DNA of 60,360 nucleotides, from NCBI GenBank assembly GCA_964502635.1, contig CAZCXI010000002.1:1-60360 (forward strand), in the 5' to 3' direction. This document shows, in pieces, positions 13,390 through 24,236 of the stretch. The notes beneath the pieces were generated by a model. The model was given only the letters and a program-made list of their open reading frames with translations. It was not told the origin of the DNA and ran no database searches. Origin of the DNA: an uncultured Desulfobacterales bacterium. GTDB taxonomy: Bacteria; Desulfobacterota; Desulfobacteria; Desulfobacterales; C00003060. Both the position numbers and the translations under genes were made by a program. Positions within the stretch are counted from its first letter, which is position 1; every line of letters starts with the position of its first letter.

Positions 13390-13783
13390 GTTAAGACCTC
13401 CCTCCTTGATGGCTGTTAGTAAGGTTGCTAGCAGCATGCACCCTGACAACCCGGACTCCTGGGACATTCGCGCGGGGTCAACGCGGGTGTGGCTGACCTG
13501 GTAGCTTTTGTCACAATGACGGACGCGATGTCAATAAGATAGACGCCACGGGATCTCTTGAGTTTTTCAAAAGAAACCTATATGGTTTTGCCGACAGGCG
13601 GAGCATCTTTCGTGGTCCCGGTTGGACTCAGTACCATACCGGCAGGCAGGGTTGAGCCTTGACAGCCCGGCAACGAACGCCGCCATGTCGGGGACGGCCA
13701 TTTGTATCTCAATGTCTGGCGGGAGCGAATTCGCCCGCCGGGTATTTTGCTTATGTTCAATCCAATGCTGGAAAACAGTAGCT

Positions 13784-14710
13784 ATGCCAACTAGTTATCT
13801 GGAATGGACCGATGAAAACGGCCAGGTTTGTCACCTGGAAGTCGTTGACAAGATTTTTGTTGGACGCAGTTGCCGGGGCATTGAAGAATCAAAACGGATT
13901 ATTGTCAAAGATCCCGGAGTATCCCGGGATCATGCCATCATTAGCATGAGTGGTTCAGGTCTTCAGATCACAGACATGAGCAAAAATGGTGTCTGGATAA
14001 ATGATGTACGGGTGGCGCCCGGTTCATCACAGGACTTGAACCACGGCGATGTCATCCGGGTGGGGAACGCCTTGCTCTATGTGAGATGTCCATGTCCTGG
14101 GCCCATTGAGGCAGATATGGACAGTACGAGGAGCGGGCCCATTGAAATGGTAGTGACCAGCCTGGTTGCTGATGTGAGAGGATTTTCAGCCTTGTCACAA
14201 AGGCAGGATTCGTCTGAGGTCTATGCCTTGATGAAGGATATCTTTGAGACGTTTACAGGGATCGTATGTGATTTCAAAGGCACGATTAAGGACTACGTTG
14301 GTGACGCGGTTTACGCCTTCTGGGATCATGGCTTTCAACCGCGCCAGGAACAGGCTCTGTTGGCCTGCCGCGCAGCGCTTAAACAGTTGAAAACTCTAGA
14401 CCAAATGCGCTCCTCCACGTCGTCCGGCAGATATGTGGCTGTCGAGGGTTTGCCCATGGGGTGGGGGATCACGACCGGCAGGGTGACCATGGCGCACTAC
14501 AGTTCGAGGGTCGCTGATTTGGCCCTGGTAGGAGACGCCACCAATCTGGCGTTCCGCTTGTCCGGTATGGCGAACAAAGATCTTTCCAGTCCAATTGTCA
14601 TCTGCTCTCAGACTGCCGACCTGGTGCAAGACACCCTGTCGCTGGTTGATCTCGGATGCTCCGCTGTCCGAGGGCGCAGGGGGCGGGAACATCTTTACGG
14701 AATCAGGTAG
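13784..14710 (+). CDS. FHA-domain protein fused to a class III adenylate/guanylate cyclase domain
   Basis: FHA-like N-terminus (FVGRS...VSRDHAII...GLQITDMSKNGVWIN) and a cyclase core (SLVADVRGFSALS...VGDAVYAFW). ATG 13784 is internal to ORF 13622..14710. Confidence 0.85.
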   Translation: MPTSYLEWTDENGQVCHLEVVDKIFVGRSCRGIEESKRIIVKDPGVSRDHAIISMSGSGLQITDMSKNGVWINDVRVAPGSSQDLNHGDVIRVGNALLYVRCPCPGPIEADMDSTRSGPIEMVVTSLVADVRGFSALSQRQDSSEVYALMKDIFETFTGIVCDFKGTIKDYVGDAVYAFWDHGFQPRQEQALLACRAALKQLKTLDQMRSSTSSGRYVAVEGLPMGWGITTGRVTMAHYSSRVADLALVGDATNLAFRLSGMANKDLSSPIVICSQTADLVQDTLSLVDLGCSAVRGRRGREHLYGIR

Positions 14711-14779: not shown

Positions 14780-15418
14780 ATGAAATGCCCGAAATGCCAA
14801 TCTGAACTCTTTGAGAAGGCAAAATTCTGCCCTGAGTGCGGTAACCCAGTCGGATCAGACGAACAGGGTCGGTTCCGTGCGAACACCTTGTCGCCCTTGG
14901 CCGGAGAGAAAATCACGGGCACGAGCAGTGCTGGCGAAGCGTTGGGAACCCCCACTGGCCTAAAACGGACGTTGTCTACGGAACTGGTTGGCACACACGC
15001 TGAAAGGGATACGTCCGTTGAGCTGAATGCATTAGTCGAAAGCCAAACATGGGAAGCGGGAGAAATTATTATACGGAACGGAGACAGGAACAGGGACCTT
15101 CTTTTCCTGATCAAGGGTCATGTTGAAATATTAACGAGCCCGGAGGGTGGGGATCTTGTACTCAATGAAGTTGACGCCCCGCACATCCTCGGAGATATCG
15201 CCTTTCTTTCCGGCCTTCCCAGAACGGCTACCGTCATGGCAAAAACGCACGTGAACGCTTTCGTCTTAAGATATGATAACTTCAAAAAACTGTTTGGAGA
15301 ATTTCCCGAGTGGCTTCATCTTCTCTTAAGTTCCTTTACGAGTGGCATCAAGTCACTTCACTATAAGATCGCAGAACTGGAAGGACAAGCTGAAGCCCTT
15401 AAAAACCGTTCGGACTGA
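14780..15418 (+). CDS. zinc-ribbon plus cyclic-nucleotide-binding domain protein
   Basis: N-terminal CPKC...CPEC, then a cNMP-binding fold (IIIRNGDRNRDLLFLIKGHVEI...GDIAFLSGLPRTATVMA). Confidence 0.8.
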   Translation: MKCPKCQSELFEKAKFCPECGNPVGSDEQGRFRANTLSPLAGEKITGTSSAGEALGTPTGLKRTLSTELVGTHAERDTSVELNALVESQTWEAGEIIIRNGDRNRDLLFLIKGHVEILTSPEGGDLVLNEVDAPHILGDIAFLSGLPRTATVMAKTHVNAFVLRYDNFKKLFGEFPEWLHLLLSSFTSGIKSLHYKIAELEGQAEALKNRSD

Positions 15419-15478: not shown

Positions 15479-16702
15479 GTGGAAACCCCATTGATCGAAT
15501 TCAGGAACGTCAGCAAGCGTTTTGGAGACCGAACGATTCTGGATGACGTGAATGCGCAGATTTTCGAGGGCCACGTAACGACCATTATAGGCAAGAGCGG
15601 AGGCGGCAAGAGCGTACTCCTCAAACACATCATAGGCCTGCTCTCGCCCACTGAGGGAACCATCCTGTTTCGCGGCAGGTCTGTTGATGAGATGAGCAAG
15701 ACGGACTGGGACGTCTTCAGGAGTCAGTTCAGCTACTGCTTCCAGAATAACGCCCTTTTCGATTCGCTTACGGTCTTCGAGAATATTGCGTTGCCGCTGC
15801 AGCAAACGACCAAGTTGACCAAGAGAGAAATTGACAGCAGAGTTATGGAGAAAGTGGATCACCTCGACCTTGCCGAAGTCCCGCACAAATACCCGTCTGA
15901 ACTCTCTGGCGGGATGCAGAAGCGGGTGGCTTTGGCTCGTGCGCTGGTCACAGATCCCAGTATTGTTCTTTTTGACGAGCCCAGCACCGGCCAGGACCCG
16001 ATCAGAAAGAATGCCATCTTGAGCATGATAGTGCAGAACCAGGAAAGGTTTGGATTCACGACCATCATGATCAGTCATGATGTTCCGGACGTCTTCTTCA
16101 TTTCAGACCGCATACTCGTTCTCTACGAGAAACAGATCGTTTTTCAGGGCACGTATAACGAACTTGACCAGTTCGAACATCCCATGGTCGACGAATTCGT
16201 CAAGAGCCTTGAAGGCATCCGGGACGAACTCACTGGTCTGCGTTCAAAAAACAGTTTCATGAAGCTCTATGAAGATGTGAGGGACAAAGCACCGCATGAG
16301 AGCACTATCGTGGCCACGTTTGCCCTTGACGACACGGATCGGCTCAGTGAAGAACTGGGACACACACAGGTACAGGGGATCATTCAGAGCCTCGGGGAAT
16401 GCGTGAACAGACACTTTGGGGATGCCGGGATTTCTACCCGGATCGGAAGAAATCAGATAGCAACGATCCTTCAATGCTCGGACCCGGACAAGGCCGAGCT
16501 TGTGCTGGACGATTTCGCCGGCAAGCTTCAGGACAAGGGATTGGGCGCCTTTGAGGGTGAAGTCCACGCCAACGTCGATTCGCTGAAACCCTATTCGTTT
16601 TCGGTCTCTGTTGGACTGGCCGAAGCCAATCCCGGCGAGGACATACAGGTTACCGCGAAAAGGGCAGGATCGAGGACGAAAAAAATAAAACTGACACATT
16701 AG
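15479..16702 (+). CDS. mlaF: MlaF-like ABC ATPase with a roughly 150-aa C-terminal degenerate GGDEF-like domain (paralog 1)
   Basis: Walker A GKSGGGKS, signature LSGGMQKRV, Walker B IVLFDEP. The C-terminus begins LTGLRSKNSF and has RIGRNQIA where GGDEF would be. Confidence 0.85.
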   Translation: METPLIEFRNVSKRFGDRTILDDVNAQIFEGHVTTIIGKSGGGKSVLLKHIIGLLSPTEGTILFRGRSVDEMSKTDWDVFRSQFSYCFQNNALFDSLTVFENIALPLQQTTKLTKREIDSRVMEKVDHLDLAEVPHKYPSELSGGMQKRVALARALVTDPSIVLFDEPSTGQDPIRKNAILSMIVQNQERFGFTTIMISHDVPDVFFISDRILVLYEKQIVFQGTYNELDQFEHPMVDEFVKSLEGIRDELTGLRSKNSFMKLYEDVRDKAPHESTIVATFALDDTDRLSEELGHTQVQGIIQSLGECVNRHFGDAGISTRIGRNQIATILQCSDPDKAELVLDDFAGKLQDKGLGAFEGEVHANVDSLKPYSFSVSVGLAEANPGEDIQVTAKRAGSRTKKIKLTH

Positions 16703-16734
16703 GGCTATGAAGGACAGAGATAGGGCTGAATGAC

Positions 16735-17550
16735 ATGGGAATGCAATCGTCAGATCCCGAAAAGACTCTCCTGGCGCCTTTTGCGCTACTGGGTCGGACC
16801 GTCACGGGTTGGGTGAATGAACTTGGGGCCGTAGCTATCTTTCTATGGAGGGCCTTTGTCATGATCTTCAGGCCCAGGCAGGTTTCCAGCATCATTCAAC
16901 AAGTCTACTATATCGGGGCCAAATCCACGACTATTGTCATGCTGGTGGCACTTTTTACGGGTATGGTCCTGGGGCTGCAACTCTACTACGCTTTGGTCCA
17001 ATTTGGCTCGGAGGGGGTCCTGGGCACCACCATATCTCTCTCGCTGGTCAGGGAACTAGGGCCCGTGCTGGCGGCCATCATGATTACGGCTCGGGCAGGT
17101 TCCTCCATGGCTACGGAAGTGGGCATCCAGCGTATCTCTGAGCAGATCGACGCCCTCTATACCATGCGCATCGATTCGTTGCGCTACCTGGTAAGCCCTA
17201 GAATTGCTGCCTCGGTCATCAGCTTTCCCCTGCTGACGGCCGTATTCGACCTGATCGGGATTGTTGGCGGATACATCAGTGCTGTCTTGCTCCTGGGCCT
17301 CAACGCCGGCACATACTTACATGGCGTGCAATCCGGCGTGGAGATGAAAGACATCACCGGTGGCTTTGTGAAGTCTATTGTCTTTGCCATTATTGTTTCC
17401 ACGATTTGCTGCTTTCAGGGCTATTTCACGCACATGCGCAGGGATAGCTACGGCGCGAAAGCAGTTGGACTCTCCACCACGTCGGCCGTTGTGCTGTCGT
17501 GCGTCCTTATCTTGGTGGCAGACTATGTTGTGACGTCTTTTCTCATGTAA
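16735..17550 (+). CDS. mlaE: MlaE-type ABC permease
   Basis: 271-aa multi-TM protein with MlaE family conservation (LVRELGPVLAAIMITARAGS). Confidence 0.9.
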   Translation: MGMQSSDPEKTLLAPFALLGRTVTGWVNELGAVAIFLWRAFVMIFRPRQVSSIIQQVYYIGAKSTTIVMLVALFTGMVLGLQLYYALVQFGSEGVLGTTISLSLVRELGPVLAAIMITARAGSSMATEVGIQRISEQIDALYTMRIDSLRYLVSPRIAASVISFPLLTAVFDLIGIVGGYISAVLLLGLNAGTYLHGVQSGVEMKDITGGFVKSIVFAIIVSTICCFQGYFTHMRRDSYGAKAVGLSTTSAVVLSCVLILVADYVVTSFLM

Positions 17551-17556
17551 GGGTCC

Positions 17557-18798
17557 ATGACAAACCATCCCTTGATCGAATTTAGAGACGTCACGAAGCG
17601 CTTTGGGGAGCGTACCATACTGCACAAGGTCAATCTGAAGATCTACGATGGCGATGTAACCACCATCATTGGCAAAAGCGGTGTGGGTAAGAGCGTGCTG
17701 CTCAAGCACATCATCGGGCTCTTAAAGCCGGATGAAGGTAGCGTTCTGTTTCAGGGCGAACCCATCGACAAGATGACGAAGGTTGAATGGAATGAATATG
17801 TCACTCGGATAAGTTACATGTTTCAAAACAACGCCCTTTTCGATTCGATGACGGTCTTTGAAAATGTGGCCATGCCCCTGCGACAAACCACTAGATTGAG
17901 CGAGAAAGAAATCAAAGAGAAGGTCATGGCCCGGGTTGAGCAAACAGAGCTGATGCCGGTGGTGAACAAATACCCGTCGGAGCTTTCAGGGGGGATGCAA
18001 AAGCGGGTGGCCCTGAGTCGGGCCCTGGTGACTGATCCGAAGATTGTCCTTTTCGACGAGCCGACGACCGGCCAGGATTTGATCCGGAGAAATGCTATAT
18101 TGGGGATGATCGCTGAATGCCACAAGAGCTTCGGGTTCACCGCTATCTTGATCAGCCACGATCTGCCTGACGTTTTCTTTATCTCAAACCGCATTATCGC
18201 CCTGGATAAAGGAGAGGTTGTCTTCGAGGGCACACCGGAAGAACTGGAAAACTTCGAACATCCTTTTCTGGATGAATTCATTGATAGCCTGGAAGGATTC
18301 CAGGAACACCTGACCGGCCTTTACTCCAGGCGAAATTTTAGGGTGCGATATCAAAAGCAAATAGGCCAAAAACACGCTGATGAAACATTCGTGCTACTCA
18401 CCTTTTCTGTAGAAGACATAGGACTGGTGGGTACCACTCTGGGGCAAGAAACGTCACAAAAACTGATCAGGGCCTTGGGCATATACTTGAATAAACACTT
18501 TGGCTCGGTAGGGGGATTCTCGACGCGGCAAAACACCGAGCAGTTTGTCACCGTGCTGCCGTTTTCGGATCTCAATGAAGCGCAGAAGATTCTGGACGAT
18601 TTTGCCACGGATCTTGTGGAACGGGGGTTGTCCAATATTCAAACCAGTGCCCAGATTCCTGAAGGAGAATGCTTCGACTTTTCCATCTCTGCCGGGCTGG
18701 CCGAGGGTAAGCAGAACGAGGAAATTGGTTCGGTATTGGAACGGGCCGGGGCTCAACGGAAAACCATTGCACGATTTCAATGTGACAAGCGGAGGTAG
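17557..18798 (+). CDS. mlaF: MlaF-like ABC ATPase with a C-terminal degenerate GGDEF-like domain (paralog 2)
   Basis: GKSGVGKS, LSGGMQKRV, IVLFDEP. The C-terminus begins LTGLYSRRNF and has RQNTEQF at the GGDEF position. Confidence 0.85.
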   Translation: MTNHPLIEFRDVTKRFGERTILHKVNLKIYDGDVTTIIGKSGVGKSVLLKHIIGLLKPDEGSVLFQGEPIDKMTKVEWNEYVTRISYMFQNNALFDSMTVFENVAMPLRQTTRLSEKEIKEKVMARVEQTELMPVVNKYPSELSGGMQKRVALSRALVTDPKIVLFDEPTTGQDLIRRNAILGMIAECHKSFGFTAILISHDLPDVFFISNRIIALDKGEVVFEGTPEELENFEHPFLDEFIDSLEGFQEHLTGLYSRRNFRVRYQKQIGQKHADETFVLLTFSVEDIGLVGTTLGQETSQKLIRALGIYLNKHFGSVGGFSTRQNTEQFVTVLPFSDLNEAQKILDDFATDLVERGLSNIQTSAQIPEGECFDFSISAGLAEGKQNEEIGSVLERAGAQRKTIARFQCDKRR

Positions 18799-18804
18799 AG
18801 GCAA

Positions 18805-19278
18805 ATGCAAAAGTACGCCCATGAAACAGTGGTGGGAATCTTCGTCATCATCGGGTTGGTGTGTGTGGGGTATATGGCGGTAAAACTCGGCGATGTTTCT
18901 CTTTTTGGTGACAATTCATACACGATATACGCGCGGTTCAACTCGGTGTCCGGCCTGAAAGCGGGCAATCCCGTGGAAATGCTTGGGATGGAGATCGGAA
19001 AGGTAGCAGCCTTTAAGCTGGATCAGGATGACCTGCTGGCCATGGTGGAGTTGAGAATCAAGCCAGACATAAAGATCTATGAGGATGCCATTGCCTCGAT
19101 CAAGACAGCCGGACTCATTGGAGACAAATATGTCAGCATCGATCCTGGGGGCGGGGGGGGTCTCCTAAAACCCGGCGACACCATCACGGAGACTGAATCG
19201 CCGGTAGATATTGGGGAACTCATCAGCAAATATGCCTTCGGAGACGTGAAGAAAGAGGAGGTGGAAAAAGATGAATGA
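18805..19278 (+). CDS. mlaD: MlaD (MCE-domain) substrate-binding component
   Basis: N-terminal TM anchor plus an MCE domain (ARFNSVSGLKAGNPVEMLGMEIGKV...GLIGDKYVSIDPG). Confidence 0.9.
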   Translation: MQKYAHETVVGIFVIIGLVCVGYMAVKLGDVSLFGDNSYTIYARFNSVSGLKAGNPVEMLGMEIGKVAAFKLDQDDLLAMVELRIKPDIKIYEDAIASIKTAGLIGDKYVSIDPGGGGGLLKPGDTITETESPVDIGELISKYAFGDVKKEEVEKDE

Positions 19279-19900
19279 GAAGTCAAGAAGCGTGGACATG
19301 AAAAGACAGGTTCTCGCATGGATCATGATGACGGTGATGGCCCTTTTTGCTTTTCCCCTTCAGGTGAGTGCGGGCACGCCGCAGCAAATCATTGAGGCAC
19401 AAGTGAACAAAGTGCTTGATGTGTTGCGGGAGCCCGCCTCAGAGGGCGAATCTGGTAAAAAGGCCAAGGAAGAGAAGATCTGGTCTATATTCGATAGCAT
19501 TTTCGACTATGCCGAACTTTCAAAAATGACCTTGAGTCGGAATTGGAAGAAACTGAATGGCGATCAACAGAAAGAGTTTGAAGAACTCTTTAGAAAGCTT
19601 CTTGGAAATGTCTACATGGACAGAATATTGGCCTACAAGGACGAAAAGGTCGCCTTTGAGAGGGAGACCATGCTTTCAGCGGACAAGGCCGAGGTTCAAA
19701 CCAAAATCCGTACAAGCACCAAGGAGATCCCCATGAACTACAGGATGATCGCCAAGAATGATCAATGGAAGGTGTATGACGTCATTATCGAGGGCGTGAG
19801 CATGATCAAGAACTACCGCAGCCAATTCAATGACATCCTCGCGAAGAAACCTCCCGAAGAGTTACTGAAAATCCTCCGGAAGAAGGTGGGCAACGCATAA
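19271..19900 (+). CDS. mlaC: MlaC/Ttg2D-family periplasmic lipid-binding protein
   Basis: Signal peptide (an alternative start is ATG 19298), a toluene-tolerance-family pattern, and position after mlaD. Confidence 0.8.
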   Translation: MNEKSRSVDMKRQVLAWIMMTVMALFAFPLQVSAGTPQQIIEAQVNKVLDVLREPASEGESGKKAKEEKIWSIFDSIFDYAELSKMTLSRNWKKLNGDQQKEFEELFRKLLGNVYMDRILAYKDEKVAFERETMLSADKAEVQTKIRTSTKEIPMNYRMIAKNDQWKVYDVIIEGVSMIKNYRSQFNDILAKKPPEELLKILRKKVGNA

Positions 19901-19911
19901 ATCCCTGATCA

Positions 19912-20769
19912 ATGACGAAAGGAGCCATATATCCTATGAGACGTCTATCATCTGCCGTTGTCATCATTGTTGTGTTCTTTATCATCTCCGTCTTCAAGCT
20001 GATCCCGTCGTCTTCTCTTGCATGGGCGGATGCATGGAATGTTGACAGACAAGAAACAGGGGCCTCGCTGGTAGATCAAGCCGTGTCCACACGGCAGGAC
20101 ATCGCGCTGGCCTCTGTTGACGATGATCCTGCCTCGCTGGACGAGGAAGAGGAAGAAGAAGTCGTGGAGATAGCGGATCCTATCTATTACTGGAACAAAG
20201 GCATGTATCATTTCAATGACAAGCTCTACTTCTGGTTATTTAAGCCCGCGGCAAGGGGATACAGGTGGGCGGTGCCTGAGTTGGTCAGGACGGGAGTCAG
20301 TAATTTCTTCTATAACCTGCGGTTTCCCATCCGGTTTGTCAGCTGTCTCCTTCAGGCCAAGGGAAGTGCGGCAGTGGGTGAACTAGGACGATTTGTCGTC
20401 AATACGACTGCAGGTGTCGCCGGTCTTAGAAATGTAGCCAAAGCCCACCCCAAGTTGAACCCAAGCGAGGAGGATTTAGGACAGACCTTCGGCCGGTGGG
20501 GGATCGGCAGCGGCTTTTATATCGTCTGGCCCTTTCTGGGCCCTTCCACGCTGCGAGAGTCCGTGGGGTGGGTGGGAGATCTGTTTCTGGATCCTGTCAC
20601 CTATGTGGACCCGAGAGAAGCGTCTGCAGGGATCATGGTATACGAAGTGCTGAACAAGGCCTCATTTACGATCGGAGATTACGAAGCCTTGAAGGAAGCG
20701 GCCCTTGAACCCTATGTGGCCATTCGTGACGCCTACGTCCAACATCGGAAAAAGAAGGTCGAAGAGTAG
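19912..20769 (+). CDS. mlaA: MlaA/VacJ-family outer-membrane lipoprotein
   Basis: The VacJ-like core (DPIYYWNKGMYHFNDKLYFWLFKP...NLRFPIRFVSCLLQ...NTTAGVAGL) is typical of MlaA. Confidence 0.85.
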   Translation: MTKGAIYPMRRLSSAVVIIVVFFIISVFKLIPSSSLAWADAWNVDRQETGASLVDQAVSTRQDIALASVDDDPASLDEEEEEEVVEIADPIYYWNKGMYHFNDKLYFWLFKPAARGYRWAVPELVRTGVSNFFYNLRFPIRFVSCLLQAKGSAAVGELGRFVVNTTAGVAGLRNVAKAHPKLNPSEEDLGQTFGRWGIGSGFYIVWPFLGPSTLRESVGWVGDLFLDPVTYVDPREASAGIMVYEVLNKASFTIGDYEALKEAALEPYVAIRDAYVQHRKKKVEE

Positions 20770-20847: not shown

Positions 20848-21567
20848 ATGATCTTTTTTGGCCAGACGGATGTTGGTCTGAAACGGGCCAAGAACGAAGA
20901 TAGCTTCGTTGTGAAGCCTGAACTGGGTCTTTGCCTTGTGGCGGACGGCATGGGTGGGGCTGCTGCCGGGGAACTGGCGAGCCACCTGTTTGTTGAGACC
21001 GCGGTGGAGGTGTTTTCGAGATCCCCGAGTCGATCTGAAAAGGAGACCGCTGACCTTACTCAAAAGGCTTTTCAATGGGCAAATGAACGAATCCTTGATC
21101 ACGTCGGGACGGAGCCTCGGCACAAGGGCATGGGCTGTACAGCAGAATTGGTGGCGTTTTGTAAAGACAGTTTTGTTGTAGGACACGTAGGAGACAGCCG
21201 CACCTATCTCCTTAGAAACGGGCAGCTGAAGCAATTAACCGAAGATCACTCTGTTGTCCAAGACCAGATAAACCGGGGCATCATCAGCCCGGCCCAAGCA
21301 AAAAACCATCCGCTCAGAAACGTCATACTTCAGGCAGTGGGGGTTAAAGAAAAGATAGAGGTGGACGTCATGACAGGCAAAGCACTTGCGGGCGACCTCT
21401 TTCTACTTTGCTCGGACGGACTCACGGATATGGTTGATGACACATCGATTCAGGAAACGCTTTCCGTGACCGGCGCTGTCCCTGCAAAGGCAAACAACCT
21501 GATTGAGCTTGCAAAATCCGCTGGCGGCCACGACAATATTACCGTGGTCCTGTCTCAAGTAGTCTGA
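20848..21567 (+). CDS. PP2C-family Ser/Thr protein phosphatase
   Basis: GQTDVGLKRAKNEDSF, ADGMGG, GDSR, LCSDGL and GGHDNITVV motifs. Confidence 0.9.
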   Translation: MIFFGQTDVGLKRAKNEDSFVVKPELGLCLVADGMGGAAAGELASHLFVETAVEVFSRSPSRSEKETADLTQKAFQWANERILDHVGTEPRHKGMGCTAELVAFCKDSFVVGHVGDSRTYLLRNGQLKQLTEDHSVVQDQINRGIISPAQAKNHPLRNVILQAVGVKEKIEVDVMTGKALAGDLFLLCSDGLTDMVDDTSIQETLSVTGAVPAKANNLIELAKSAGGHDNITVVLSQVV

Positions 21568-23240
21568 TCATCGGCGATCTCGTCCTCCGGCGCGTTGTTG
21601 TCCTCCGACGCGTTGTCGGTTGCCTGAAATTGTTTCCGCATGAAGTCTGAAAGATTGACCCTGTCGTATCTCTGAGTCAAATCCTGTCTGAGGGCAGTCA
21701 TGTCCTGTAGAAGTTCTCCTGCGCTTTGATATCGGAGCCGCTTGTCTTTCTCCAGACATTTCATGATGATGTGATTCAACGCGTCCGGAACATCCTGCCG
21801 GCAGTCTGTTATGGGTGGTATCTCCCTTTCCGGGATGGATCTGATGGCTTCTATATCACTGGTGAATTTATAAAGTCTTTTGCCTGAAAGCATTTCATAA
21901 AACACGATCCCCAGGGCATATAGGTCTGCCTGGTGGTTCACCGTTTGCCCCAGGGCCTGTTCGGGAGACAGGTAAGCAAGCTTTCCCTTGATAACGCCCG
22001 AGTGGGTCAGGCTCGGTTCAGAACTTGTCTTCGATATTCCGAAGTCGCTTATTTTTACTTCTCCTTGAAATGAAATCAGAATGTTCTGAGGACTGATATC
22101 TCGATGGACAATGTTGAGGGCCTCCCCTGACTTGTGGTCTTTTTTCGAGTGGGAGTACTCCAGCCCCATAGCCACTTGAGAGGCAATAAAAACGGCTTGG
22201 TCGACGGTCATTTGGTCCTGAAGTTTGGCCATCACCTCGCCCAGATTCTTTCCCCGGACATACTCCATGGCAATAAAATAAACGTTTGCGATTTTACCAA
22301 AATCAAGGACCTGGACCACGTTCGGGTGCTGCAACAAGGCCGCCAATCTCGCTTCTCGGATGAACATGTTGACAAAATCCGAATTCTCAGCAAGGTGGGG
22401 CAGAACCCTCTTGACAGCCACTGTCTTGCGAAAACCGTCCTGGCGTTCGTAGCCCGCCACGAATAGTTCAGCCATCCCCCCTTGTGCCACCTTCTTTTCC
22501 AACAAATAGGGACCCATCCTGGTCATACCCTCCATGGCCTTTTGTGCCTTTAGGGCTCTTGCCATGGACAGGCGATCCATGGTCACAAGTATGGCTAACA
22601 ACAAGACAAGGCCGAAAACCACCCCGAAAACAAAAACGGTCCTGTACCTGCTCAAAGAAGCATGCAGGTCGGCTGCCGACAGGGCCAAATAAACCTTGCC
22701 TATTCTTACGCCCGAATAGACCACGGGAGCTGAGAACCGAACGGTTTTTTCATTCTTGACGGACACGCCCTCCTCAACGGAGACCCCCTCAATGGTCCCT
22801 TGGTAGCTTTCATGTCTTAAGGAAGGCAGCGTCCGGTTGACCAATCTCGCGTCCGTGTGCGCCACGATCTTATCCTGGTGGTCCACGATGGCACAAAATA
22901 TCAGGCCTGCACTGCTTTCAAGCTCGCCGATGGCCATGTTCAGGGATAAAACATCATTTTCCAAAAGGGATGGGCCGATTTGAGCGACAAGATTATGGGT
23001 CCGTTCCAATCCAACCTGGTAGAAATCGTCCTTCAGGCCTTTCACCGTCTTTTGGAGCGTCACATAGCCGGCCAGGCAGCCGACGACCCAAATCAAAAGA
23101 CACAGGTTGATTCGTTTCCTGTTGCGCTGAATCGCGTTTATTCTGAATACCCCCCTGCCAAACTTCAGGAAGATATTCGTCGAGAAATCCTTGACCCACA
23201 ACATAGTCGTTGAAGCTGTTTCGCGAACCGTCATGATCAA
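21555..23240 (-). CDS. Hanks-type Ser/Thr protein kinase with an N-terminal extracytoplasmic sensor domain
   Basis: C-terminal kinase domain (VAVKRV, HRDISPQNIL, DFG, SPEQ). The N-terminus has TM, a roughly 150-aa sensor, then TM. It is convergent with the PP2C gene and overlaps it by 13 nt. Confidence 0.9.
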   Translation of the reverse strand: MIMTVRETASTTMLWVKDFSTNIFLKFGRGVFRINAIQRNRKRINLCLLIWVVGCLAGYVTLQKTVKGLKDDFYQVGLERTHNLVAQIGPSLLENDVLSLNMAIGELESSAGLIFCAIVDHQDKIVAHTDARLVNRTLPSLRHESYQGTIEGVSVEEGVSVKNEKTVRFSAPVVYSGVRIGKVYLALSAADLHASLSRYRTVFVFGVVFGLVLLLAILVTMDRLSMARALKAQKAMEGMTRMGPYLLEKKVAQGGMAELFVAGYERQDGFRKTVAVKRVLPHLAENSDFVNMFIREARLAALLQHPNVVQVLDFGKIANVYFIAMEYVRGKNLGEVMAKLQDQMTVDQAVFIASQVAMGLEYSHSKKDHKSGEALNIVHRDISPQNILISFQGEVKISDFGISKTSSEPSLTHSGVIKGKLAYLSPEQALGQTVNHQADLYALGIVFYEMLSGKRLYKFTSDIEAIRSIPEREIPPITDCRQDVPDALNHIIMKCLEKDKRLRYQSAGELLQDMTALRQDLTQRYDRVNLSDFMRKQFQATDNASEDNNAPEDEIADDQTT

Positions 23241-23276: not shown

Positions 23277-24236
23277 TTACACAGCCAGTTTCCTGATGAT
23301 CTCAGTGCACCTGAAGACCACCTGTCGTTTCAACCAACCCAGACCTTCTGTCTCACCGATGTCTGTCAAGGACATCCCTTCAGATTTTGAGCTCTTTGCG
23401 GTTCCTGGTTCGCCATCTCCCGCGCGAAGACATACAAAACCATCCAAATTGATGCGACTCACCGCTTCGTGCGTGAAGGGCTTGTCCAACCCACATAGAG
23501 GGCACGCCATATGGGAGGTTTTTCCCAGAGGAACATGCTCGGCCTTCAATGCGCTCTTTGGGCCCCTTGACCCCTTGGCTGTAAGGGTAAAATCACTAAA
23601 GGACAACGCAACAGCGAGCAGCAAAAGCACACCAAAGCTTGAAATCGTGATCAAACTGAACCGGCGCTTGAAGTGGTTGATCTCAATAGCTGAAAGGGCC
23701 AGATAGATTTCGCCAATCTTCGTCCCAGCATAGGTGACATTCGTCGAAAAGCTAAAGATCTTTTTCCGGTCCGCTGCAAACCCTTCCCAAAAAGACACCC
23801 GGTCAATGGTCCGGGCAAAACCCCCTTTGTTCACAGGCATGATGAGTTCAGCATTGGTATAGGCGACGATATTATTCTTGTGATCGATAATGGCCGCGTA
23901 AACAACACTTGGGTTGTCTGTCGCTTCATGGAGCAGACCACTCAGCGTGGCCATGTCTCGCTCTAGCAGGGGCATGCCGACCTTCTCCGAAAACGCTGTG
24001 GCCATGGCGATTCCAGATTGACTGATATTGCGCTTGACCTGGCCGATGCTGATTCTCACAATCACATACGTGATGAGGACAAGCAAAAGCCAAGCCAGCA
24101 GGCAGAACATGAGAACGCGTTTGTTTCTACGGTTCGGCCCCACTCCAAGCATCTTCTCCCTTGTGCAAACCAAGAACTTCCATAAGGGGTTTTTCCGGCG
24201 CCACATTGAATGGCCAGTCATCCTCTCACCCGCCAT
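23277..24236 (-). CDS. membrane protein with a sensor domain paralogous to the kinase N-terminus; Cys-containing C-terminal tail
   Basis: AAIIDHKNNIVAYTNAELI / GTKIGEIYLALSA parallel AIVDHQDKIVAHTDARLV / GVRIGKVYLALSA in the kinase. The tail contains CPLCG. Confidence 0.6.
   Translation of the reverse strand: MAGERMTGHSMWRRKNPLWKFLVCTREKMLGVGPNRRNKRVLMFCLLAWLLLVLITYVIVRISIGQVKRNISQSGIAMATAFSEKVGMPLLERDMATLSGLLHEATDNPSVVYAAIIDHKNNIVAYTNAELIMPVNKGGFARTIDRVSFWEGFAADRKKIFSFSTNVTYAGTKIGEIYLALSAIEINHFKRRFSLITISSFGVLLLLAVALSFSDFTLTAKGSRGPKSALKAEHVPLGKTSHMACPLCGLDKPFTHEAVSRINLDGFVCLRAGDGEPGTAKSSKSEGMSLTDIGETEGLGWLKRQVVFRCTEIIRKLAV

Follow-up and report, generated by a model that had tools for sequence, protein, structure and literature searches.

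An Mla-type lipid transport locus of a Desulfobacterales bacterium with a degenerate GGDEF domain on both ATPases and a candidate cyclic-nucleotide-binding partner

Introduction

How might an Mla-type lipid transporter be held together and controlled when it has two different ATPase genes and no MlaB? This question is raised by a stretch of 60,360 nucleotides (nt) from an uncultured Desulfobacterales bacterium (contig CAZCXI010000002.1 of assembly GCA_964502635.1; the whole stretch is hereafter called the window), in which six open reading frames (ORFs) on the plus strand, from 15479 to 20769, follow the order F1 (MlaF')-MlaE-F2 (MlaF'')-MlaD-MlaC-MlaA. Post-translational control of Mla systems is poorly understood, and the direction of transport in E. 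coli has been contested. To our knowledge MlaB is the only known handle on Mla control, and most bacteria lack it.

A first-pass annotation, made from the sequence alone, had read these genes as an Mla-type system with the order and coordinates just given; the ORFs are exactly as it described them, and MlaE, MlaD, MlaC and MlaA are each matched by their Pfam families. By homology, these genes specify an envelope lipid transporter of the Mla type, with a predicted MlaE permease, MlaD MCE ring, MlaC shuttle and MlaA lipoprotein, which would carry phospholipids between the outer and inner membranes. Here we describe the domain that is fused to both ATPases, its distribution, and a cyclic-nucleotide-binding (CNB) protein that accompanies F1. 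The explanation of the whole that we regard as on balance probable is an E-F2-D-C-A operon combined with an F1 module that senses cyclic nucleoside monophosphates (cNMP), in which the degenerate (pseudo-)GGDEF domains would be dimerisation and docking platforms taking the place of MlaB.

Both ATPases end in a degenerate GGDEF domain

F1 and F2 are 53% identical over their full length. All motifs that the first-pass annotation had quoted for them are present: Walker A (GKSGGGKS / GKSGVGKS), the LSGGM signature, Walker B (IVLFDEP) and the H-switch SHD at the ATP site, and, further on, the GGDEF entry motifs LTGLRSKNSF / LTGLYSRRNF and end motifs SVSVGLAE / SISAGLAE. The nucleotide-binding domain (NBD) of F1 spans residues 1 to about 243 and its GGDEF domain residues ~244-407 (nt 16205-16702); that of F2 is encoded by nt 18286-18798. 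Pfam recognises ABC_tran with 121 bits in either protein and GGDEF (PF00990) with 29.4 bits in F1 (residues 248-405) and 34.0 bits in F2 (residues 251-398), both above the gathering score of 23.8. MlaF (NF008809) is the best NCBIfam match of the two ATPases, with 205.6 and 207.1 bits, far under the equivalog cut-off of 441 bits; synteny and the LSGGM signature also point to an MlaF role for both.

When a profile of 15 C-terminal domains was compared with all PDB sequences, it matched almost only GGDEF chains (best DgcR, 6zxb, E = 7e-13). An AlphaFold2 model of the F2 domain (pLDDT 87.6, pTM 0.84) has its secondary structure elements in the order of a GGDEF domain, and GGDEF domains account for every one of the top 50 Foldseek matches of this model in the PDB (probability 1.0, TM scores of 0.6-0.7). 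Pfam, the profile search and the structural comparison concur: the C-terminal extension is a genuine GGDEF fold, as the first-pass annotation had proposed for the last ~150 residues. In a model of the full-length F1 monomer, a continuous helix joins the NBD to this domain, like the stalk of a diguanylate cyclase.

The residues that make a GGDEF domain an enzyme are gone. TRIGRNQIA / TRQNTEQF stand where R-x-GG(D/E)EF would be expected, and a HMMER alignment places the GGEEF of DgcR against NTEQF in F2 and GRNQI in F1. Aligned to the same protein (6zxb), the position of the metal-binding Asp holds non-acidic residues, the guanine-binding Asn is replaced by Ser or Gly and the guanine-binding Asp by Gln, and none of these positions is conserved family-wide. 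A conserved, family-specific HFG-x motif occupies the RxxD I-site, five residues upstream of GGDEF. The pattern G[GAS][DE]EF occurs in none of 152 non-identical locus-derived members and none of 238 database members (0/390), and what conservation is left in the domain concerns structural residues, namely LTGL, GH, an Arg preceding the hairpin and, in beta4, G-[LF]-A. Because catalytic, ligand and I-site residues are lost, cyclase activity and canonical binding of c-di-GMP at the I-site are very unlikely, in agreement with what had been said of the cyclase activity before, and we rejected an active diguanylate cyclase on the loss of the motif and of the ligand residues. The domain used alone as a query against 1.84 billion representative proteins returned mostly fragments of the MlaF-GGDEF family, with ordinary multi-domain GGDEF proteins coming next; this GGDEF subtype is therefore essentially MlaF-specific.

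What such a domain could do on an ATPase is less evident. Degenerate GGDEF domains serve elsewhere as nucleotide receptors (PelD, GdpP), and the pseudo-GGDEF domain might mainly be a small-molecule receptor that gates ATP hydrolysis, with GTP, ATP, (p)ppGpp, c-di-GMP or another nucleotide bound at a non-canonical site; its counterparts would then be the C-terminal domains with which MetN and ModC bind their ligands, or the CBS domains in OpuA. The conserved family-specific NKHFG at the I-site position and a conserved Ser-x-Arg in the beta-hairpin speak for a receptor, as do PleD GGDEF structures with bound ppGpp among the Foldseek matches. However, the contacts of the canonical substrate site and I-site are replaced family-wide, no ligand can be identified from the sequence, and F1-type ATPases have a distinct nucleotide sensor dedicated to them, the CNB protein. 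A receptor role thus seems doubtful to us, and we rather see the domain as a platform for dimerisation and docking.

The fusion is the usual MlaF of many anaerobic lineages

Our scans covered one-genome-per-species contigs and JGI (Joint Genome Institute) metagenomes; the loci found in them carry L-numbers and were annotated using the window's own proteins. Genome scans with the single F2 sequence returned only three true relatives and alignment-based scans were needed; an A2-based scan used generic patterns, and its matches were mostly short MlaFs. Among the metagenome homologues listed, the best 120 for F2 and the best 120 for F1, all 240 carry ABC_tran together with GGDEF, under generic names. 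The fusion, of which we collected 152 non-identical members, is the usual MlaF in dozens of species-level genomes. Within the Desulfobacterota it is found in Syntrophaceae/Smithella, Syntrophorhabdales, Desulfobacterales (including the cultured Desulfamplus magnetovallimortis), Syntrophobacteraceae, Desulfatiglandaceae, Desulfomicrobiaceae and Desulfovibrionaceae, and beyond them in Nitrospirota/Thermodesulfovibrionales, Dissulfurispiraceae, Candidatus Binatia and a few genomes of the Planctomycetes-Verrucomicrobia-Chlamydiae (PVC) group (Opitutae, Lentisphaerales). A more divergent Desulfobacterales group, of about 403 residues, reaches up to 75 bits with Pfam GGDEF and is likewise degenerate. 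The prevailing layout is MlaE-F-MlaD-MlaC-MlaA with a single ATPase, and the fused form is nearly always the only one.

These results bear on two features that had been thought distinctive. The first-pass annotation knew of no Mla system with such a fusion, and indeed we found no paper that describes an MlaF-GGDEF fusion or the CNB partner in the full-text literature (most subscription journals being outside its coverage); nonetheless the fusion is far from rare, as its phylogenetic spread shows. The absence of MlaB was also correctly noticed, with no STAS/MlaB protein encoded by any called gene up to 10 kb to either side in identical public contigs, the rest of the 60-kb window not having been scanned for STAS. 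As a distinguishing mark, though, it falls away: MlaA, MlaB and MlaC are sparsely distributed among diderms, and outside Proteobacteria it is ordinary for MlaB to be lacking (PMC10665443). Among the short-MlaF operons of Desulfobacterota, the small ORFs that came up as STAS candidates were mostly spurious frames.

A side branch of the family consists of orphan F2-type genes with no Mla genes within 8 kb (L135:7989-9230, L148:8001-9239, L123, L134, L136, L139, L144, L153, L157). Upstream of them, a HAMP-SpoIIE phosphatase and an Ada-like regulator are encoded in L135 and L148.

F1 and F2 belong to separate subfamilies

Identity is about 65% within the F1-type or the F2-type and about 55% across types. 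A neighbour-joining tree places all ATPases with a cNMP-binding neighbour, F1 included, in one clade and F2 in another, together with the ATPases of single-ATPase operons. F1 and F2 belong to two old, separate subfamilies, of which the F2-type, encoded between MlaE and MlaD, is the common one. Since the family-invariant positions are kept (92/94 in F1 and 94/94 in F2) and dN/dS against L022 is low (0.135 for F1, 0.156 for F2), which indicates purifying selection, both are functional genes. The two types occur together only in the window and its close relatives (L022, L027, L105, L106, L185-L188; F1 identity at least 84%). Outside that clade, the closest match for the MlaE, F2, MlaD, MlaC and MlaA of the window is a single-ATPase operon (L019), and the simplest history is that a standard E-F2-D-C-A operon gained a cyclase-CNB-F1 module upstream.

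Two further observations concern the evolution of this clade. Synonymous divergence from L022 is uneven along the cluster, with dS values of 0.87 for F2, 0.51 for F1, 0.28 for MlaE and 0.15 for MlaD, which suggests a mosaic history or recombination. Moreover, the C-terminus of F1 (16640-16702) has lost, in the two-ATPase clade, an otherwise near-invariant I-A-R-F-Q-C strand with its Cys, and ends in KKIKLTH in the window and in RRIMTSKS in L022.

Two different ATPases around one permease gene invite the idea, which builds on the heterodimeric NBD pair suggested in the first-pass annotation, that F1 and F2 are obligate partners on an MlaE dimer and that their different pseudo-GGDEF domains would heterodimerise as a built-in regulator. 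The two genes lie on either side of a single mlaE, closely spaced and in the same orientation, and this arrangement is kept in all close relatives (L022, L027, L105, L106, L185-L187); both genes are under purifying selection, and the loss of IARFQC in F1 of this clade could reflect specialisation for a mixed dimer. However, many other genomes have complete Mla operons whose one ATPase is either of the F1-type or of the F2-type, which shows both to be competent as homodimers. Classical heterodimeric ABC (ATP-binding cassette) pairs have a degenerate ATP site, whereas both ATPases here have fully canonical ATP-site motifs. MlaE is the sole permease gene of the operon, which argues for a symmetric membrane dimer, and the two-ATPase layout is limited to the one narrow clade. 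We therefore consider an obligate heterodimer possible but not favoured, indeed unlikely; alternative or mixed dimers of F1 and F2 on one permease fit better.

A different outcome may be seen in the MCE/Mla-type operons of Bdellovibrionota (L284-L294, e.g. L289 of Bdellovibrio bacteriovorus). As in the window, two different MlaF-like ATPase genes are present, but the ATPases are short (about 245-255 residues) and have no GGDEF domain, and they are followed by two MlaE paralogues and MlaD, as opposed to the one MlaE of the window. To judge by its gene content, this looks like a fully heterodimeric transporter, and the pairing of two ATPase genes with two MlaE genes is a further point against a heterodimer on the single MlaE studied here.

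F1 is encoded with a candidate cyclic-nucleotide-binding partner

Every F1-type gene found has a gene for a zinc-ribbon/CNB protein just upstream. A reverse scan with an alignment of this partner yielded 21 true family members (L188-L208), the next matches being generic CNB domains of at most 36% identity; in all contigs that extend beyond the gene, the true member has an F1-type ATPase as its neighbour, in nearly all cases along with Mla genes. Four gene orders were seen (C<D<E<|cNMP>F1; E>D>C>cNMP>F1; cNMP>F1>E>D>C>A; cNMP>E>F1>D>C), and F1 is the only ATPase in all of them. The phosphate-binding cassette G[DE]IAFLxGxPRTAT of the CNB protein is invariant and resembles that of protein kinase A (PKA), whose regulatory-subunit CNB domains are also its best PDB matches. 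Pfam finds no helix-turn-helix (HTH), and only about 40 residues follow the CNB domain; a role as a CRP-like transcription factor was rejected for want of an HTH. The protein thus shares a PKA-like phosphate-binding cassette with PKA regulatory-subunit and CRP-type CNB proteins but differs from them in having an N-terminal zinc ribbon and no HTH, in its invariable genomic partner, an ABC ATPase, and in having no known kinase-inhibitor function.

All partner proteins have an invariant R-T-L-S-T-E directly ahead of the CNB domain (residues ~61-67, 14960-14980). It resembles a site for a basophilic kinase or an FHA ligand, and its position is reminiscent of PKA regulatory subunits, in which an inhibitor site comes before the CNB domains.

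Could the cyclase-CNB-F1 module be independent of the Mla genes beside it? F1 would then power another permease or be a soluble signalling ATPase, its place in the window being a by-product of insertion. Some CNB-F1 pairs do lie without Mla genes within 7-8 kb (L023/L024, L029=L207), an orphan F2-type clade exists (L135, L148), and the Mla core of the window resembles single-ATPase operons. Against this, some 20 other genomes have the pair directly next to MlaE-MlaD-MlaC with no ATPase but F1 at hand, and the best family match of F1 is MlaF. Also, a gap of 32 nt separates F1 from mlaE, which follows on the same strand, and a promoter and terminator scan gave counts at or under the shuffled expectation, with no terminator signal above chance. 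We hold an independent module to be very improbable.

Cyclase, phosphatase and kinase genes flank the operon

The gene upstream of the CNB protein encodes an FHA domain and a class III nucleotidyl cyclase (hereafter FHA-cyclase). It counts 308 residues from the ATG at 13784, and the longest ORF begins with a TTG at 13622. By sequence, adenylate cyclases match it best in the PDB (CyaB, 3r5g, 1e-12), with DxRGF, GDA and NxxxR aligned. Orthologues stand beside the CNB-F1 module in two gene orders, upstream of it in L022, L105, L106 and L188 and downstream of MlaA in L191. This last locus (L191:5917-12038, Desulfobacterales bacterium S7086C20) reads cNMP>F1>MlaE>MlaD>MlaC>MlaA>FHA-cyclase, and its cyclase scores 498 bits against that of the window.

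On the other side of the operon, a PP2C gene is co-directional with it and conserved in L022 and L185-L187, and a Ser/Thr kinase gene is convergent with the PP2C gene. Next to the kinase gene, a 319-aa protein (23277-24236, minus strand) has an N-terminal region paralogous to the sensor part of the kinase (phmmer, 89.6 bits) and no kinase domain.

Taken together, the CNB partner of F1 and this neighbourhood of cyclase, phosphatase and kinase genes, all absent from the first-pass annotation, are more distinctive than the features it had singled out.

A possible mechanism

In E. coli, MlaF needs MlaB and a C-terminal handshake of ~25 residues for stable dimerisation and for binding to MlaE, and artificial dimerisation rescues a truncated MlaF (PMC7367683). 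By analogy, we propose that the pseudo-GGDEF domains pair under the NBD dimer, like the regulatory domains of MalK, MetN and ModC; the pair would hold two MlaF subunits together and offer a docking surface, and would do the job of both MlaB and the handshake. The CNB protein would be a dedicated accessory subunit of F1-type ATPases, binding or releasing F1 depending on cAMP or cGMP made by the FHA-cyclase; the kinase and PP2C phosphatase encoded nearby could plausibly control this cyclase by way of phospho-Thr. F1 and F2 would share the single MlaE dimer, by competition or as mixed pairs, with F2 as the basal engine and F1 as the engine under cNMP control.

The most specific form of this proposal is a cyclic-nucleotide-gated lipid transporter, in which the CNB protein is an Mla subunit analogous to MlaB that docks onto the pseudo-GGDEF domain of F1, the FHA-cyclase is under kinase/PP2C control, and F2, a constitutive engine interchangeable with F1 in this clade, uses the same permease. 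In this full form the proposal is tentative, and we would not call it probable.

Several observations weigh against the proposed mechanism as a whole. The substrate-specifying position of the cyclase (~173-182 of the 308-aa form; 14300-14330) reads KD and not DK/K (TIKDYVGD as compared with TIDKFVGD in CyaB), and the nucleotide product is uncertain because this position is atypical. Linkage to the kinase and PP2C genes is confined to this narrow clade. Only nine positions separate F1-type from F2-type proteins, and they are scattered with no obvious partner-binding surface. The full-length F1 model has a pLDDT of 70.7 and a hinge at 246-253 that falls below 50, and it gives no domain orientation. 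Finally, the transported lipid is assigned by homology, and the MlaC-family protein is nearer to HpnM, its best NCBIfam match with 92.7 bits (under the cut-off), than to E. coli MlaC (35.5 bits).

Comparison with known systems

With the MlaFEDB-MlaC-MlaA system of E. coli as well as of A. baumannii, the window shares MlaE, a single-MCE MlaD, MlaC, MlaA and an ATPase that has MlaF as its best family match and carries the LSGGM signature (PMC7367683). Unlike E. coli, it has no MlaB, a degenerate GGDEF domain of ~165 residues replaces the ~25-residue handshake extension, the order is E-F-D-C-A with mlaA inside the operon, and genes for a second ATPase and for a CNB accessory protein are added. 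MlaB is likewise lacking in the MlaEFD system of Veillonella parvula (PMC10665443). The MlaF of that type is short and has no fused domain, whereas the window has a short MlaD together with MlaC and MlaA, as in Proteobacteria.

The closest architectural parallel comes from other ABC transporters. MalK, MetN, ModC and OpuA (with CBS domains and c-di-AMP) carry a domain fused after the NBD, which dimerises below the NBDs and relays the binding of a ligand or partner to the ATPase. The extra domain follows the NBD directly in these proteins as it does in F1 and F2; it has a TOBE, ACT-like or CBS fold in them and a GGDEF fold here, where dimerisation and a ligand or partner are suggested by analogy. 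The literature searched yielded no example of an ABC ATPase with a GGDEF fold in this place. A second parallel concerns the domain itself. LapD, PelD, FimX, GdpP and CsrD use a degenerate GGDEF domain as a receptor or scaffold, joined to EAL, HAMP or membrane modules and in many cases with its I-site intact. The GGDEF fold and the loss of the catalytic motif are shared with them, and LapD and FimX are among our structural and profile matches; unlike in these proteins, the domain sits here on an ABC NBD and has no I-site.

What the locus presents is a known transporter, a known fold in a new place and a candidate subunit, the CNB protein, that had gone unnoticed. A broad set of MlaFs with a built-in GGDEF-fold domain, with a CNB partner in one subfamily, would offer a concrete and testable regulatory route, by which sulfate reducers, syntrophs and Nitrospirota would tie the lipid homeostasis of their outer membrane to signalling by second messengers and Ser/Thr phosphorylation. 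The GGDEF fold would also join the few regulatory domains that are fused to ABC ATPases, and the family shows a further fate for degenerate GGDEF domains.

Layout of the locus

The features are collected in Table 1. Neighbouring genes of the Mla operon are spaced by -8 (an overlap) to 32 nt.

Table 1. Predicted genes of the Mla locus and its surroundings, with positions in the window.
Feature	Position	Strand	Remarks
FHA + class III nucleotidyl cyclase	13784..14710	+	Pfam FHA 1.1e-14, Guanylate_cyc 1.9e-10
Zn-ribbon + CNB protein	14780..15418	+	Pfam cNMP_binding 1.6e-16 (60.4 bits) and zinc ribbon
F1, MlaF-type ABC ATPase + degenerate GGDEF	15479..16702	+	407 aa, GTG start; Pfam
MlaE permease	16735..17550	+	271 aa; Pfam MlaE (PF02405) 4e-73, 245.9 bits, cut-off 22.5
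F2, MlaF-type ABC ATPase + degenerate GGDEF	17557..18798	+	413 aa; Pfam
MlaD, single MCE domain	18805..19278	+	157 aa; Pfam MlaD (PF02470) 4e-22, 78.6 bits
MlaC-family periplasmic lipid-binding protein	19271..19900	+	Pfam MlaC (PF05494) 4e-47, 160.5 bits
MlaA-family outer-membrane lipoprotein	19912..20769	+	Pfam MlaA (PF04333) 2.6e-68, 230 bits
PP2C-type Ser/Thr phosphatase	20848..21567	+	Pfam PP2C_2 1.9e-18
Ser/Thr protein kinase, N-terminal membrane or sensor region	21555..23240	-	Pkinase recorded for the identical gene in public contigs

More specific family models agree with the Pfam assignments to different degrees. MlaE reaches 222.2 bits with TIGR00056 (cut-off 212.2) and MlaD 145.2 bits with the OM_asym_MlaD equivalog TIGR04430 (cut-off 135); for MlaC and MlaA, the E. 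coli equivalog models score under their cut-offs. A hopanoid cargo was considered from the HpnM match of the MlaC-family protein and is no more than a caveat, that match being under the cut-off and no called gene within 10 kb having a hopanoid-type Pfam family (hpnN, shc). Public gene calls place the start of MlaE ~126 nt downstream (229 aa); the longer form is more likely because the alignment to the family profile begins at residue 19 of the 271-aa ORF. Elsewhere in the window, the segment 46001-50000 has a G+C content of 0.41-0.46, as compared with about 0.52 in the rest, and may be of foreign origin.

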